Below are positions 5,005-43,220 of a stretch of DNA of 44,664 nt, one piece after another. The number at the start of each line of letters is the position of its first letter. Position 1 is the first letter of the stretch. Source of the DNA: a phage; the sequence record OZ077758.1, one strand, 5' to 3'. The notes under the pieces were generated by a model, which worked only from the letters and a program-made list of their open reading frames with translations, made no database searches and was not told the origin of the DNA. The position numbers and the translations under genes are program-made.

Positions 5005-5769
5005 TTAGCGCGGAATACCGCAAATCTCGTTGAGAGTTTTCACATCCAGCGCCACCGCCGTGGATTTTGGCTTGTCCGGGTAAGGGATGAATTGCTCAAC
5101 TTCAGGCCATGCCTTAATCAGCTTCTTGTCAGTATTGTGCAGGTCCAGCACACCGGTAACGGTCAACTTGAACGCGTCATACTTAGCCCGCAATTCGCGG
5201 CGGGCATGATCGTTACGGTCCAGGCGCTTACAGAAGTCATGATCCGCAGGGTAGTCTATACGACCGCGTGGCTTATAGATCGGCAGCGATTTTCCGTCCT
5301 CGTCCACTTCACACACCGAAGCCAGCATAACTTCCTCGAACCCCGGTACGATATCGCCGAGATCGGGAGATAGCTTATTCATGTATTTATATTCCCAGTA
5401 TCCGCGATGTACGCGGTATTGGTGACCGTCACCGCTCAAGGACAAGGTGCGAACGTTTCCGCCTGCATTTATTTCGAAAGTGGCGTCGTAAACGCTGCCG
5501 ATGCCTTTCGGGCGGTCGGTGTTATAACTATACGTCGCCTTGTTGGTGTATACACAGACGCCGTACATCTGCGACGGGTCATCGCCGATTGCTTCAATGC
5601 GCGCGAGTAGCTCGGCGAACGTGCGAATGCCTTCTGGCATACAGTCCAGCGTAATGGCGTACGCCAGGTCGCGCGAGTCCATCATTATTGATTTTGCTTC
5701 TGTCGCGATTTCGTGGTCGCGCAGGATGTTAGCCAGAATCTGATTTTTAATGTCTTTAGTCAGTCTCAT
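5005..5769 (-). CDS. hypothetical protein, counter-oriented moron in capsid module
   Basis: 254 aa from ATG at 5769..5767 (MRLTKDIK...), RBS GAGGA; the longer track ORF to 6216 overlaps the scaffold gene and promoter and is rejected; no recognisable catalytic motif. Confidence 0.7.
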   Translation of the reverse strand: MRLTKDIKNQILANILRDHEIATEAKSIMMDSRDLAYAITLDCMPEGIRTFAELLARIEAIGDDPSQMYGVCVYTNKATYSYNTDRPKGIGSVYDATFEINAGGNVRTLSLSGDGHQYRVHRGYWEYKYMNKLSPDLGDIVPGFEEVMLASVCEVDEDGKSLPIYKPRGRIDYPADHDFCKRLDRNDHARRELRAKYDAFKLTVTGVLDLHNTDKKLIKAWPEVEQFIPYPDKPKSTAVALDVKTLNEICGIPR

Positions 5770-5798
5770 TTTTGTGTCCTCGTTGTTGGTGTGCAACC

Positions 5799-5827
5799 AA
5801 TATATGCAACCAATACGAGGATTGCAA
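5799..5827 (-). promoter_or_regulatory. sigma70-like promoter for the minus-strand moron
   Basis: minus strand reads TTGCAA - 17 bp (TCCTCGTATTGGTTGCA) - TATATT about 30 nt upstream of ATG; two direct copies of GCAACCAAT at 5793..5801 and 5806..5814. Confidence 0.45.
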
Positions 5828-11384: not shown

Positions 11385-11387
11385 TGA

Positions 11388-11516
11388 AGCGGGACAGGCG
11401 GGACGTCCCGTTTTGTCCCGCCCCTGCAAAACTGCATACCTATTCACTTCCACCGCATAAACTCAAAACGGGACAAGCGGGACGTCCCGTTTTGTCCCGC
11501 CCCTGAAAGGTGCATA
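11388..11516. repeat. two direct copies of a 36-bp GGGAC palindromic element
   Basis: GGGACA(G/A)GCGGGACGTCCCGTTTTGTCCCGCCCCTG at 11391..11426 and 11470..11505 (one mismatch); each contains the 12-bp perfect palindrome CGGGACGTCCCG and 8-bp inverted arms GGCGGGAC / GTCCCGCC. Confidence 0.8.
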
Positions 11517-11540
11517 ACTATTCTAATTTCGTGCATAAAG

Positions 11541-11712
11541 TAAGCGGGACAAAAAGCGGGACAGACAAGGGGCGGGACAAAACGGGACAGCACCCCGTCC
11601 CCGCCAGTGCTGCCGCGGTTTTCAGCCGATCGGGACAGCGGGACAGCACCCCAGTCTTTCAGACTAGACGGGGGTCATCGGCCCCCCTCGTCTGAGACTG
11701 AATAAGGTTTGT
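11541..11712 (+). repeat. GGGACA iteron array plus conserved double-hairpin element (copy A)
   Basis: four GGGACA repeats at spacing 12/16/10, a 34-bp variable block, two more GGGACA, then hairpins AGTCTTTCAGACT and AGACGGGGG..CCCCCCTCGTCT; near-identical to 39596..39772. Confidence 0.8.
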
Positions 11713-11768
11713 TTGAAATTCGCTGATACAATACCAATCGGCAACTGCATAAAAAAGGGGACTGCATA

Positions 11769-21636: not shown

Positions 21637-21848
21637 CAGGTGGTGCTTTTGAAGTGGTCGACCGACACATACTGGAAGTTGAACGGATACCCCGCCTTGA
21701 GCATTTTGTGCCCGCTAAAGTCGGCGACACCGAACACCGGTACAGAATACTCCATACCGCTATTCATATATGTCGCGTCGCAGATTTTAGACGGCATACC
21801 GGCACAACCGGACAGAAGAACCGCACAAATCATAATTAAAGTTTTCAT
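21630..21848 (-). CDS. small lipoprotein, candidate superinfection-exclusion (Llp/Cor-like role)
   Basis: 72 aa from ATG 21848..21846 with strong RBS AGGAGA; signal peptide MKTLIMICAVLLSGC with lipobox LSGC; opposite strand to flanking tail genes. Confidence 0.65.
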   Translation of the reverse strand: MKTLIMICAVLLSGCAGMPSKICDATYMNSGMEYSVPVFGVADFSGHKMLKAGYPFNFQYVSVDHFKSTTCK

Positions 21849-21927
21849 GTTATCATCTCCTATATTTGGTTGAGTTTTAGTATTACACCTCTCAACCAGG
21901 ATTGCAACCAATTATGAGGATTCAGCT

Positions 21928-25047: not shown

Positions 25048-25069
25048 TGCAACCAACCTATTGGTTGCA
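25048..25069. promoter_or_regulatory. perfect palindromic operator TGCAACCAA-N4-TTGGTTGCA
   Basis: inverted repeat of the TTGGTTGCA motif, overlapping the 3' end of the HAD gene and upstream of gene 24486..24995; adjacent TTGCAAGTGAATTTTGC 17-mer also found at 5822..5838. Confidence 0.55.
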
Positions 25070-25528
25070 AGTGAATTTTGCAACGTTTATCGCATAAATC
25101 TTCGGGACTAGATCGCCGCACGCCCGACGAATTGCCGCGATGTTCTTCGGACAGTCTTCAATGATGACCAGTTCCGACACGTCCGCATAGCAGACCATTT
25201 TGAACACGGCGCACGCCTTAAACTCTGGTGGCGGGGTGTCGTCCAGCATGTGGCGCATAAACAACCGGCCTACCGGGAAGATCTCCAATTGCTCGGCGGT
25301 GGTGTCCCAACATTCTCGCTGCCGGTTGGTCAGATACGCGATCTCGAAGCCTCGCTCTTTGTACATGCGCAGCAACGGCAGCATATCCATATTCAGGTCT
25401 TCGCGTACGTGCGCCTTGTGCCACTTCGCCCAAAAGGTGGATTTAGTTTTTATACCAGGCACCAGGTCGGCGCGCGCATCGCTTGAGCCATTAATAACGC
25501 CATCCAAATCGCAAATCAGTAATTTCAT
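25058..25528 (-). CDS. HAD-superfamily hydrolase (possible nucleotidase/phosphatase)
   Basis: 156 aa; HAD motif I LLICDLDGVI at N-terminus. Confidence 0.5.
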   Translation of the reverse strand: MKLLICDLDGVINGSSDARADLVPGIKTKSTFWAKWHKAHVREDLNMDMLPLLRMYKERGFEIAYLTNRQRECWDTTAEQLEIFPVGRLFMRHMLDDTPPPEFKACAVFKMVCYADVSELVIIEDCPKNIAAIRRACGDLVPKIYAINVAKFTCNQ

Positions 25529-26950: not shown

Positions 26951-26979
26951 AATATAATGCAACCAATATGGTTATGCAA
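26951..26979 (-). promoter_or_regulatory. sigma70-like promoter
   Basis: minus strand TTGCAT - 17 bp - TATATT; two direct ATTGGTTGCAT copies (one supplies the -35, one abuts the -10). Confidence 0.5.
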
Positions 26980-26984
26980 CCAAT

Positions 26985-29892: not shown

Positions 29893-29921
29893 AATATACC
29901 GCTACGCGACCAATTCAGCAA
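29893..29921 (-). promoter_or_regulatory. sigma70-like internal promoter
   Basis: minus strand TTGCTG - 17 bp - TATATT with ATTGGTTGC at the -35; lies inside the 3' end of the VRR-NUC gene. Confidence 0.4.
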
Positions 29922-30180
29922 CCAATAAATCACAGTCGGCTATGTTGTCGATAACGCGAACGTCCGCACCGCGGCGGGCCATCCGCTCATGTTCTCGTAC
30001 CTGGTGCGGCTTCGGTTTGCCTCCGGGGCGCTTCACTTCGACGAAAACTATTCTGCCGTTGATGATGATGATCAGATCTGGCGCACCTGCGCGCCCCTCC
30101 CAAGCCACTTTGCGGCAGAATCCGCCTACCGCTTTCACCCGTCGCATCAGGTGACTTTGAATCTTGCCCTCTGGTGTCAT
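29902..30180 (-). CDS. VRR-NUC domain nuclease
   Basis: 92 aa from ATG 30180 overlapping polymerase stop; motifs GAPDLIII and VFVEVKRPGGK..Q. Confidence 0.7.
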   Translation of the reverse strand: MTPEGKIQSHLMRRVKAVGGFCRKVAWEGRAGAPDLIIIINGRIVFVEVKRPGGKPKPHQVREHERMARRGADVRVIDNIADCDLLVAELVA

Positions 30181-33476: not shown

Positions 33477-33541
33477 TTTCCAATTCCTCATTTTCACATG
33501 TATCGGGGTTATTGGAAGCCACCCCGTTCGGCTTGGTTGCT

Positions 33542-33570
33542 AATCTACTTGGTTGCGCCTAAGCGGTCAA
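33542..33570 (-). promoter_or_regulatory. sigma70-like promoter upstream of SSB-like gene
   Basis: minus strand TTGACC - 17 bp - TAGATT; two TTGGTTGC copies on + strand at 33533..33540 and 33549..33556. Confidence 0.4.
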
Positions 33571-35850: not shown

Positions 35851-36363
35851 TTAATCTTCCAGTTCGAAATAGGTTTCGACGATTTCTTTTAGCTCTGTGT
35901 GGAAGTCTTCGACGTCGTCATCTTCCAGCTTGGCGATTGATTTGATCTCGAACGATTCCAGCAGGTCGTCGAATTCGTCGTTCGCATCGTCGTCATCGCC
36001 ACCGGCGATAATAGCGGCATACTGTTTGATTTCGTCGCGCATCTCCGCCAGCGGATCGGCATCTTTCTTACCTTTGCCTTTCGCCGGTGCTTTCTTAGCC
36101 TTAGCCGGTTTTTCGTCTTCGGCGTCTTCGTCGTCGTCATCTTCTACGACTTCTTTTTTGGCCTTACCTTTCGCCGGTGCTTTTTTAGTTTTCGCCGGTG
36201 CTTCGTCTTCGGCGTCGTCATCTTCTACGACTTCTTTTTTGGCCTTAGACGGCTTCTTGTCTTCCTGCTTACCAACGGCAGCGCCAACGGTTTCATAATG
36301 TTTAGCGATGGTTTCCAGTGCTACTACGCCGCGAGTGATCAGGTTTACGATTTGCTCAAACAT
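35851..36363 (-). CDS. acidic repeat protein, first gene of leftward early operon
   Basis: 170 aa from ATG 36363 (RBS GGAGA); two tandem ~23-aa repeats (KKEVVEDDD.EDE.PAK.KKAPAKGK) from a ~69-bp nucleotide repeat; poly-Asp C-terminal half. Confidence 0.6.
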   Translation of the reverse strand: MFEQIVNLITRGVVALETIAKHYETVGAAVGKQEDKKPSKAKKEVVEDDDAEDEAPAKTKKAPAKGKAKKEVVEDDDDEDAEDEKPAKAKKAPAKGKGKKDADPLAEMRDEIKQYAAIIAGGDDDDANDEFDDLLESFEIKSIAKLEDDDVEDFHTELKEIVETYFELED

Positions 36364-36559
36364 GGTACATCTCCGATTGGTTAAGTTTAGGTGTCGGCAG
36401 TTAACTTCGTCGGTGGCCTTAACATATTGCCAGGTTACGCGTTCTCCCGTTCGGGTAGTGGACCTGGTTATATAATCACGGTTGGGAATCCTGACACTTC
36501 GATCCGGCCCCTGCGTTGCCCCTCTCCAGTTTGCGTCCTGCATCCTGTCGACGGAGTGA

Positions 36560-36589
36560 ATAATAGATTGGTTGCAGGATGGGTGTCAA
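36560..36589 (-). promoter_or_regulatory. strong sigma70-like early promoter (leftward)
   Basis: minus strand TTGACA - 18 bp - TATTAT with GCAACCAAT in the spacer next to the -10. Confidence 0.55.
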
Positions 36590-36600
36590 CAACTAATTTC

Positions 36601-36635
36601 AAAAAAAAAAGCGCCGAGGCAAAATGCGACGGCGC
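36601..36635 (-). terminator. rho-independent terminator (minus strand) insulating divergent early region
   Basis: + strand A10 followed by GCGCCG-N13-CGGCGC; on minus strand this is a hairpin followed by T10. Confidence 0.6.
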
Positions 36636-36706
36636 TAACCAATAAGAGACAATGAGACGGGAATTATTATTACACGCGTGCGCGCCCGTTTCAATATCCA
36701 AAGGAT

Positions 36707-36753
36707 TTGACACCGTGCGGTTTTGGGTGTAGTTTCGTTGGTCATTAACCAAC
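36707..36753 (+). promoter_or_regulatory. rightward early promoter with palindromic operator at transcription start
   Basis: TTGACA (36707..36712) - 17 bp - TAGTTT, followed by palindrome GTTGGT-CATTA-ACCAAC (36737..36753) and RBS GAGGG. Confidence 0.5.
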
Positions 36754-36766
36754 TGAGGGCAGAGCA

Positions 36767-37096
36767 ATGAATGTAAACGACGCAATCGAAATGTTAACGA
36801 AGACTGTTTGCAGTGAGACAAGCCGGTCATGGGCATACACCGATGCCGTGGGGGCTGTGTTATTTGAAATCGAACGACTGCGGCTTACCGAAAAAGAATT
36901 GCGCGCCAGGCTGGAACTACTCAACGGTACAGCAGCAAGCAAGCTGCAAAAACACAATGAAGAAATGGAAGAATACAAAAAGCAGGTTATCCGTTTGCGC
37001 GCCGAGGGTAAATCATGGGCGATGATTGCCGAGTTGACCGGAATTAATCAGAGCACAGTGCGCTCCTGGGTACGCAATAATAAAACTTCTAAGTAA
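36767..37096 (+). CDS. helix-turn-helix DNA-binding protein (putative regulator)
   Basis: 109 aa; C-terminal HTH-like KSWAMIAELTGINQSTVRSWVRNN; first gene of rightward early operon. Confidence 0.6.
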   Translation: MNVNDAIEMLTKTVCSETSRSWAYTDAVGAVLFEIERLRLTEKELRARLELLNGTAASKLQKHNEEMEEYKKQVIRLRAEGKSWAMIAELTGINQSTVRSWVRNNKTSK

Positions 37097-39457: not shown

Positions 39458-39560
39458 GTATTGGTTGCCGATATGGGAATTCCCATATCGCTAAAAGATT
39501 AAATTTTGCGCGCATTGGTTGCCATTTTGGGTGTTTTTATCAGGTCGTATTGGTTGCCGT
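39458..39560. promoter_or_regulatory. three spaced ATTGGTTGCC sites plus 20-bp perfect palindrome
   Basis: ATTGGTTGCC at 39460..39469, 39514..39523 and 39549..39558; GATATGGGAATTCCCATATC palindrome at 39470..39489. Confidence 0.6.
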
Positions 39561-39595
39561 GTAGTGTGATTATTATGAATAGTTATGCAATAAAA

Positions 39596-39772
39596 CTGCA
39601 TAAAACAAACGGGACAAAAAGCGGGACAAACAAGGGGCGGGACAAAGCGGGACAGCACCCCCGTCCCGCCCCGGATGACGCGGCCTGGAGAGGAGCGGGA
39701 CAGCGGGACAGCACCCCAGTCTTTCAGACTAGACGGGGGTCAGTGGCCCCCCTCGTCTGAGACTGAATAAAA
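39596..39772 (+). repeat. GGGACA iteron array plus conserved double-hairpin element (copy B)
   Basis: same architecture as 11541..11712; flanks nearly identical, central 34-bp block diverged at about half the positions with length conserved; preceded by AT-rich segment 39565..39610. Confidence 0.8.
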
Positions 39773-39925
39773 TCCGGGGATTGCAAAATACACGGCAGCA
39801 TGATGCGAAGTGCGGTCGTAGGTGAACTAGGCAACCAATGCGAGTTGCATTATGCGAAGTGAAAAATGCAGTTTGCAGTCACAGCGGATAGCGATCAACT
39901 TTTTCATGCGCGTGATTAATATTGG

Positions 39926-39954
39926 TTGCACCCCGCCTGGCACCCTGCTATATT
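39926..39954 (+). promoter_or_regulatory. sigma70-like promoter
   Basis: TTGCAC - 17 bp - TATATT, built from two ATTGGTTGCAC copies; leader GGTTGCACACCAACATGAGGA also found at the moron promoter. Confidence 0.5.
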
Positions 39955-39982
39955 GGTTGCACACCAACATGAGGACTGAACG

Positions 39983-40288
39983 ATGAAAGCGATTATCTGG
40001 AATTACGCATTAGCCGTGGCAAAGCTGTACGAAGCGAAACACACAAACGGCAACGCAGACGAAGCGCGCGAGGTCGTCATCCTGACCCAGCAGGCAATCA
40101 TGGACGCGTTCGACGATATGTTTGCCAGCCTGGACGAACTGGAACCGCTGCGTGTGGCAATCTGCGAATATGCGATGGCATTTGCCCGTGAGCGCCTGGC
40201 GTATCGTTTCGGGATCGGCGATAAGGCAGTGACAAACGTCGCCCGGATTAAAGCCCAGCGCGAACTATTCGCGCAGCTTGCGAAATAA
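39983..40288 (+). CDS. hypothetical protein
   Basis: 101-aa ORF with RBS GAGGA. Confidence 0.55.
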   Translation: MKAIIWNYALAVAKLYEAKHTNGNADEAREVVILTQQAIMDAFDDMFASLDELEPLRVAICEYAMAFARERLAYRFGIGDKAVTNVARIKAQRELFAQLAK

Positions 40289-40297
40289 GGGGCCAAA

Positions 40298-40567
40298 ATG
40301 GGCCGTAGACGAGAAAAACAGCTTTCGTGGCATATTCCCCTGCATTGCATACGAATATGGGCTAAGAATGCGGTTGAGGGCGATTCTGTGTTCTGGTGCT
40401 ATCGAGACGACGTAAAGCCACTGACGCAGACTCGCTACTTGCACCAGTTCGCAGCACAACACGATTTCAGGGTGCGGACTTCCTTGCAACCAATGGGAAT
40501 ACGTATTACATTACGCCGGAAGCCCGCCATTGAGCGGGTAGGCAAACACTGGAGACTGAGCAGATGA
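40298..40567 (+). CDS. hypothetical protein
   Basis: 89-aa Arg-rich ORF. Confidence 0.4.
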   Translation: MGRRREKQLSWHIPLHCIRIWAKNAVEGDSVFWCYRDDVKPLTQTRYLHQFAAQHDFRVRTSLQPMGIRITLRRKPAIERVGKHWRLSR

Positions 40568-43190: not shown

Positions 43191-43220
43191 TTGACTTGCA
43201 ACCAACTATCGGCCCATACT
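43191..43220 (+). promoter_or_regulatory. sigma70-like promoter
   Basis: TTGACT - 18 bp - CATACT with TGCAACCAA in the spacer. Confidence 0.4.

Follow-up and report, generated by a model that had tools for sequence, protein, structure and literature searches.

A short inverted repeat lies between a phage promoter and the gene of an HTH protein, raising the question of whether it is an operator and, if so, which protein binds it. The window, meaning the whole stretch of 44,664 nucleotides that was analyzed (sequence record OZ077758.1), represents all or nearly all of the genome of a Dhillonvirus, one of the HK578-like siphophages of E. coli, and shares 92–95% identity with many deposited phages over the 3.6 kb tested. 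Dhillonviruses are common E. coli phages and are used in therapy and in studies of defense systems. A literature search returned no account of the box motif described below, of Dhillonvirus promoters or of transcription regulation in these phages, and no transcript data.

Predicted promoter PR and the dyad upstream of the HTH gene

The genes of the window were mapped against an annotated relative. Two divergent gene blocks are separated by a gap of 403 bp (36364–36766), which contains the predicted rightward early promoter PR and the inverted repeat. The nearest gene of the leftward block is located at 35851–36363; the rightward block is led by the gene of the 109-aa HTH protein (36767–37096, plus strand; ATG at 36767), and the primase-helicase gene (738 aa) starts 10 nt after it. 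The product of the first leftward gene (35851–36363, minus strand) is 170 aa long and carries acidic and lysine-rich repeats in tandem (KKEVVEDDD...KKAPAKGK); it belongs to PHROG 3127, and the records of some relatives annotate it as a repeat_region.

An earlier note on this DNA had described the palindrome GTTGGT-N5-ACCAAC behind a perfect TTGACA -35 hexamer and upstream of an HTH gene, and this arrangement was confirmed in the sequence. The -35 hexamer of PR, TTGACA (36707–36712, plus strand), is evident in the sequence, and none of 30 main-clade relatives departs from it. After a spacer of 17 nt it is followed by the -10 hexamer TAGTTT (36730–36735, plus strand), which matches three of the six consensus positions, among them the important A (position 2) and T (position 6); its counterpart in diverged lineages is TATATT. 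The two hexamers thus stand within the 16–18 bp of a sigma-70 layout (TTGACA-17-TAGTTT), upstream of a gene, and both are kept at this distance in the 30 close relatives, so that the rightward promoter proposed earlier is plausible.

The dyad, a proposed PR operator on the basis of its sequence and its conservation in 30 relatives, occupies 36737–36753 (strand-neutral) and is made up of GTTGGT (36737–36742), CATTA (36743–36747) and ACCAAC (36748–36753). A single C separates it from the -10 hexamer, and a single T separates it from GAGGG (36755–36759, plus strand), the RBS of the HTH gene as read from the sequence. Because the -10 hexamer lies at 36730–36735, transcription from PR is expected to start near 36742, and the dyad would cover about -5 to +12 relative to this predicted start, not +1 to +17 as the earlier note had it. 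This position is within the polymerase footprint.

The palindrome alone is not significant, because 13 perfect 6-N5-6 palindromes were seen in the window, compared with 13.6 ± 4.5 in Markov simulations. The core sequence TTGGT-N5-ACCAA, found again at other promoters, is a different matter: three copies are present in the window (5786, 36738 and 39953) versus a chance expectation that we estimate at ~0.04, and all three directly follow a -10 hexamer. Zero copies were found in the window when TTGGT and ACCAA were spaced by N3, N4, N6 or N7. Judged from the sequence, recurrence, conservation and positional equivalence (see below) together raise the dyad above chance.

A box shared by many promoters

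The genome-wide box, GCAACCAA, is the reverse of ATTGGTTGC. In the window, TTGGTTGCA occurs in 12 copies where 0.34 are expected, and TTGGTTGC in 21 copies where about 2.4 are expected. From 84 distinct contexts across lineages, the unit of the box is A-TTGGTTGC-(A/C/G); the logo revealed neither conserved flanks nor a conserved partner half-site, and since the flanks are not conserved the box is an asymmetric site of 9–10 bp. Nineteen of the 21 boxes are located between genes or at most 16 nt from a stop codon, with only 9% of the window being intergenic. Sixteen of the 21 fall inside promoter-like footprints, which represent 33% of the intergenic bases; this association is partly circular, because the box contains TTGCA, which was scored as a -35. 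Judging from the sequences compared, the box is specific to this phage group.

Boxes occur in either orientation and at varying promoter positions (about -40 to +15). They supply the -35 of the promoters at 21907, 26979, 29921 and 39926, and in reverse of those at 25070 and 40484; they lie in the spacer of the promoters at 5827, 25070, 26979, 33570 and 43191 and of PL; and they cover the -10 hexamer and start site at 5827, 33570 and 39926. Six promoters combine a weak -35 (TTGCAN), which the box provides or overlaps, with a near-consensus -10 (TATATT) at 17–18 bp. Since the sites are spread over the polymerase footprint in both orientations, occlusion, and thus repression, would fit better than an activator of fixed geometry.

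The leftward early promoter PL (TTGACA-18-TATTAT, 36560–36589, minus strand) carries the box ATTGGTTGCA in its spacer at 36567–36576 (plus strand), and the PL spacer contains one or two boxes in every lineage. A rightward promoter-like site (TTGCAG-16-TAATTT, 36571–36598, plus strand), whose -35 is the box at 36567–36576, overlaps PL face to face; it was read by eye and is below the scanning threshold. The promoter TTGCAA-17-TATATT of an Nmad5-like gene (5005–5769) has two boxes (5785–5814, minus strand), the proximal of which forms the dyad ATTGGT-TGCAC-ACCAAC over the -10 hexamer and start site. The same dyad is found over the -10 hexamer and start site of the promoter TTGCAC-17-TATATT upstream of the gene at 39983–40288, which also has two boxes (39921–39968, plus strand); here the first box supplies the -35, the second forms the dyad, and the dyad is kept in other lineages despite different flanks.

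Two direct boxes, 17 bp apart, are present in the promoter TTGCAT-17-TATATT (26958–26984, minus strand), and L020 has the same pair; two inverted boxes are present in the promoter TTGCAA-18-TATCTT (25048–25069, strand-neutral). The boxes CTTGGTTGCT and CTTGGTTGCG (33532–33557, plus strand) occupy the spacer and start of a leftward promoter, TTGACC-17-TAGATT, and ATTGGTTGCT (29917–29926, minus strand) supplies the -35 of the promoter TTGCTG-17-TATATT. Boxes in promoter-like sites were found at 21903–21912 (minus strand; at the -35 of a leftward site), 40485–40494 (minus strand; overlapping the -35, TTGCAA, of a rightward site) and 43197–43206 (minus strand; in the spacer of a rightward site, TTGACT-18-CATACT). 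Downstream of the box-bearing promoter-like site at 21907, between tail genes, is a short leftward reading frame (~21800–21848, minus strand) that begins with MKTLIMICAVLLSGC, a sequence resembling a lipoprotein signal.

Conservation across lineages

In 30 main-clade sequences, the dyad changes at only two positions, the outer G (A or T in five sequences) and one A (G in two), and the GGTGTAGTTTC block is nearly invariant. Many positions of the promoter spacer and of the 13-nt ribosome-binding region are variable in the same 30 sequences. Six diverged lineages were reached via homologs of the HTH protein. At the same promoter they have a -35-like hexamer (TTGACN, TTGCAC or TTGCCT), a spacer of 17–18 nt that differs in sequence, and TATATT; a perfect GCAACCAA follows 9 nt past the -10 hexamer, next to a 5' untranslated sequence that differs. 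At the identical offset the window has TTAACCAA, the right arm of its dyad (36746–36753, minus strand), which is thus the positional counterpart of the perfect box and appears to be a weakened copy of it. This equivalence supports the earlier proposal that the half-site ACCAAC is tied to the genome-wide motif.

The symmetry of the site is another matter. The inverted repeat that the earlier note reported is indeed perfect in the window and its main clade, but symmetry is not what is conserved: outside this clade the left arm is partial (TTGGC, TGGT, TTGCT) or absent. Of the six diverged lineages, four have a single mismatch in this arm and two lack it. By this comparison the left arm of the dyad is lineage-specific.

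Two further genomes carry more distant HTH homologs. That of CHD5UKE2 (L166; 3725–4174) has 149 aa and shows 47% identity over the aligned C-terminal 66 residues; that of the contig L168 (10001–10318) has 105 aa and shows 44% identity in the C-terminal 54 residues. No box or dyad follows the PR -10 hexamer in either CHD5UKE2 or L168, yet both keep ATTGGTTGC boxes at other promoters, including PL. It follows that these phages can do without the PR site, and that the presence of boxes is not strictly coupled to the canonical HTH domain. A search covering part of each genome found no second canonical HTH copy. Both homologs retain TGINxST[VI][RK]xW, i.e., the turn and the first half of the recognition helix, and may still recognize this box. 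CHD5UKE2 and the window cease to be similar right after the -35, indicating that the gene and the operator region are exchanged together; this fits a functional unit, but weakens the correlation between operator and HTH protein as evidence. These two variants are useful natural controls.

Searches of larger collections added little. An exact scan of IMG/VR for the 15-mer TTGGTCATTAACCAA returned mostly unrelated contigs, which are chance matches in a very large collection and uninformative. A metagenome scan with an alignment of the HTH protein added only main-clade sequences. A scan of IMG/VR for relatives of P0025 returned none; the contig was found via an exact-protein look-up.

The HTH protein

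The downstream gene had been assigned to an HTH protein from the sequence, and the Pfam search agrees. Residues 65–105 scored 30.8 bits with HTH_23, 28.4 bits with HTH_28 and 27.8 bits with Sigma70_r4_2, above the respective cut-offs of 24.6, 25 and 25.7 bits. In the AlphaFold2 model (pLDDT 84), a short helix is followed by a helix of 59 residues (21–79) and by two further helices forming the HTH, and the long helix of the model suggests a dimer. Residues 49–106 are nearly invariant, and the N-terminal 48 residues are unalignable between lineages, as in a mosaic protein. The near-invariance of the HTH domain fits a protein tied to many sites. The Pfam matches, the structural model and this conservation together make the 109-aa product a candidate binder of the box. 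The scan of about 30 phage proteins turned up no further Pfam DNA-binding domain, and some 20 small phage proteins lack any Pfam match.

The evidence on the symmetry expected of a dimeric binder is mixed: the long helix of the model and the perfect dyad of the main clade stand against the asymmetric logo of the box. With no conserved partner half-site in the box, and no left arm in two of the six diverged lineages, binding of a dimer to the dyad would not be general.

The family itself is rare. A search of 1.84 billion representative proteins found only three full-length members, and the others share just the HTH. The matches that Foldseek gave were local, between the HTH and domains of resolvase, LuxR/GerE, DeoR and IstA, with no full-length structural match (best E = 0.7), and a sequence search of the PDB returned only a designed repeat protein and coiled-coil noise. 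The C-terminal 35–45 residues superimpose at 0.4–1.5 Å on the HTHs of resolvase/Hin, IS630 transposase, LuxR/GerE and sigma region 4, and in resolvases, too, a long helix precedes the HTH; unlike these proteins, the HTH protein has no catalytic domain and no full-length structural match.

In deposited annotations, the protein is called a transposase, a resolvase or the nuclease inhibitor Gam, and nothing beyond the HTH supports any of these names. A transposase or resolvase identity was rejected, as only the HTH matches and a catalytic domain is absent; Gam was rejected, as the Pfam hits at E ≤ 0.1 include no Gam family. NCBIfam scores of the HTH protein are far below cut-off. An ECF sigma factor was likewise discarded: TIGR02937 scored 21.3 bits, well short of its cut-off (42.9), and its alignment covers region 4 alone. 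As for an iteron-type Rep initiator, Pfam found no Rep-family domain.

Proposed mechanism

It is about an even call, in our judgment, that the dyad is an operator of the box family that blocks PR, its most probable binder being the HTH protein, encoded by the first gene of PR. This would amount to negative feedback as in Cro or Ner systems, and the HTH protein would also act at PL and further promoters. The operator (36737–36753) would sit between the -10 hexamer and the RBS of PR, the promoter that would drive the HTH and primase-helicase genes. Its right arm would be a weakened form of the 9–10-bp box that is embedded in most Dhillonvirus-like promoter cores, and in the main clade the second, inverted TTGGT arm, 10 bp away, may compensate for this weakening. 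A dimer of a phage DNA-binding protein would occupy the site and block RNA polymerase. The binder is most probably the 109-aa product, with its putative dimerizing long helix and C-terminal HTH. The expected outcome is negative feedback, in which the HTH protein holds down its own synthesis; via the boxes at PL and other promoters, the same protein may turn down phage transcription more widely (compare lambda Cro and Mu Ner).

A much broader role is rather unlikely. The HTH protein would then be the master switch of a virulent siphophage, acting through one 9–10-bp box in almost every promoter core: it would repress PR and PL, which have a consensus -35, and at the promoters in which a weak -35 (TTGCAN) comes from the box itself and the -10 (TATATT) is strong, it would replace or assist sigma region 4, reprogramming the host polymerase in the manner of MotA or CII. 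It could also mark a replication origin beside the primase-helicase gene.

Alternative explanations

That a different factor binds the box-family operator is a real, if minor, possibility; PR would then be regulated, not autoregulated. Such a factor might be a phage protein without a recognized domain, the primase-helicase or a host factor. The lineages with a diverged HTH keep identical boxes genome-wide without a box at PR, the small phage proteins lacking a Pfam match supply possible binders, and the correlation between operator and HTH protein may just reflect the exchange of the gene and its upstream region as one module. Against this reading stands the TGINxST[VI][RK]xW motif kept in the diverged homologs. 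As for the individual candidates, the primase-helicase gave no hit to a DNA-binding family in its C-terminal 99 residues, and a host factor is disfavored because the box is specific to this phage group.

It is distinctly unlikely that no dedicated regulator is involved and that the 17-mer is conserved as a start site, initially transcribed region and 5' untranslated region, its palindrome being coincidental. Palindromes of this size do occur at chance frequency, the hexamer TTGGTT by itself is not rare (29 copies), and what is conserved is the whole block GGTGTAGTTTC...ACCAAC, including the CATTA spacer, rather than the arms alone. This account would leave unexplained both the perfect 8-nt box at the same offset in six lineages with differing 5' untranslated sequence and the TTGGT-N5-ACCAA copies at two other promoters, in the same position.

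We regard it as very unlikely that the HTH protein is mainly a replication-origin protein, similar to iteron Rep proteins, with direct boxes near the AT-rich/CGGGACA region and an inverted repeat for autoregulation. In known Rep systems, a dyad of partial repeats is located at the initiator's own promoter. The HTH gene lies 10–13 nt upstream of the primase-helicase gene in every lineage. Moreover, three direct ATTGGTTGCC boxes (39460, 39514 and 39549; 39460–39558, plus strand) and one inverted box (39830–39839) flank an AT-rich stretch and the CGGGACA repeats within 39460–39840. Three of the four (39460, 39514 and 39830) are outside promoter-like sites, which hints at a role at a replication origin, and the fourth (39549) is inside a weak one (TTGCCG-18-AATAGT). 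Against this, most boxes lie in promoter cores across the genome, no Rep-type domain was found, and the CGGGACA repeats are better iteron candidates than the boxes. A perfect 22-bp palindrome, CGATATGGGAATTCCCATATCG (39469–39490), overlaps the last base of a ATTGGTTGCC box.

Finally, it is hardly credible that the repeat acts as a hairpin in the HTH messenger, at its 5' end, and affects stability or translation. The 17-mer does fold with 6 bp directly upstream of the RBS (-5.2 kcal/mol, z = -3.1), but this fold is weak, and for a longer leader shuffled sequence folds just as well. With transcription predicted to start near 36742, the left arm is probably untranscribed. In 5 of 30 relatives the outer pair is disrupted and no compensatory change is seen, the hairpin is absent in diverged lineages, and boxes occur in both orientations relative to transcription. 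We therefore rejected the hairpin on the basis of its weak fold, its uncompensated changes and its absence in other lineages.

Comparison with known regulators

The autoregulatory operator favored here most closely recalls the lambda Cro and Mu Ner systems, in which, as here, a small HTH protein is encoded by the first gene of the early rightward transcript and has sites, putative in this phage, that overlap two early promoter cores (here those of PR and of the divergent PL). By analogy, the expected effect would be lowered early transcription, including that of the HTH gene. The differences are considerable. The HTH protein has no sequence or family relationship to Cro or Ner; the phage is virulent, with no repressor-type HTH among the proteins scanned; its box is an asymmetric 9–10-bp site, mostly single or in direct repeats, whereas the Cro and Ner operators are symmetric; and boxes are found at a dozen promoters instead of two.

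Similar to the Rep proteins of iteron plasmids (pPS10 RepA, F RepE and P1 RepA), a direct-repeat unit reappears as an inverted partial pair over the protein's own promoter, and the gene adjoins replication genes near an AT-rich repeat region. Unlike in those plasmids, there is no Rep-family domain, and most boxes are in promoters and not at an origin. The box at the weak -35 of six promoters resembles the T4 MotA box and the lambda CII sites, which serve phage factors that act at the -35 region; in contrast to these, boxes here are also found within spacers or covering the -10 and start site, and in both orientations, so that occlusion would fit better, the protein matches neither the MotA nor the CII family, and the PR site is downstream of the -10 hexamer.

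Other features of the intergenic region and repeats

The PL leader (about 36390–36556, minus strand) holds a candidate structured RNA of ~165 nt, which is supported by covariation. It is about 73–94% conserved in unannotated intergenic DNA of Drexlerviridae, Jilinvirus, Sortsnevirus, BUCT618 and other phages, and is absent from some Dhillonvirus lineages. In a nine-sequence alignment, the fold has 7 helices with a total of 33 pairs, and 97.3% of the cells are paired. Both sides have changed in twelve of the pairs, compared with 6.3 ± 1.4 in shuffles (0 of 500 reach 12) and at most 4 in a slid-partner control. At gathering score, no Rfam 15 family matches the window, this RNA included. The ~165-nt RNA is probably more novel than the PR dyad.

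Between PL and PR, a candidate small RNA unit of ~60 nt was found on the minus strand (36600–36694); the most conserved stretch of the intergenic region is 36633–36699. The unit has a promoter-like site (TTGAAA-17-AATAAT, 36694–36666, minus strand) and a body of ~24 unpaired nt with a conserved CTCATTGTC, followed by a terminator hairpin (-16.7 kcal/mol) with T10 at 36636–36600, whose structure is kept and whose sequence differs between lineages. A search for its targets at phage gene starts gave best duplexes of -22.5 kcal/mol, no better than shuffled seeds (-19.6 ± 2.1).

Repeats of the form (A/G)GCGGGACA(A/G), some of them inverted, are arranged in two homologous clusters. The cluster at 11385–11768, upstream of the tape-measure gene, has ten CGGGACA copies, and that at 39600–39720, downstream of the primase-helicase gene and beside an AT-rich stretch, has six. 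In a layout resembling P4 ori and crr, these repeats may be origin iterons.

Conclusions

In sum, PR of this Dhillonvirus carries, between its -10 hexamer and the RBS of an HTH gene, a conserved site that is equivalent in position to an over-represented, promoter-associated box, and the HTH protein is its most probable binder. The regulatory principle itself is not new. Misannotation of the HTH gene as transposase, resolvase or Gam is widespread, and would be corrected if the pairing of box and HTH protein were confirmed; the pair would also provide a compact repressor and operator for engineering. For the Dhillonviruses, confirmation would yield a simple promoter map and would show how early transcription is shut down.
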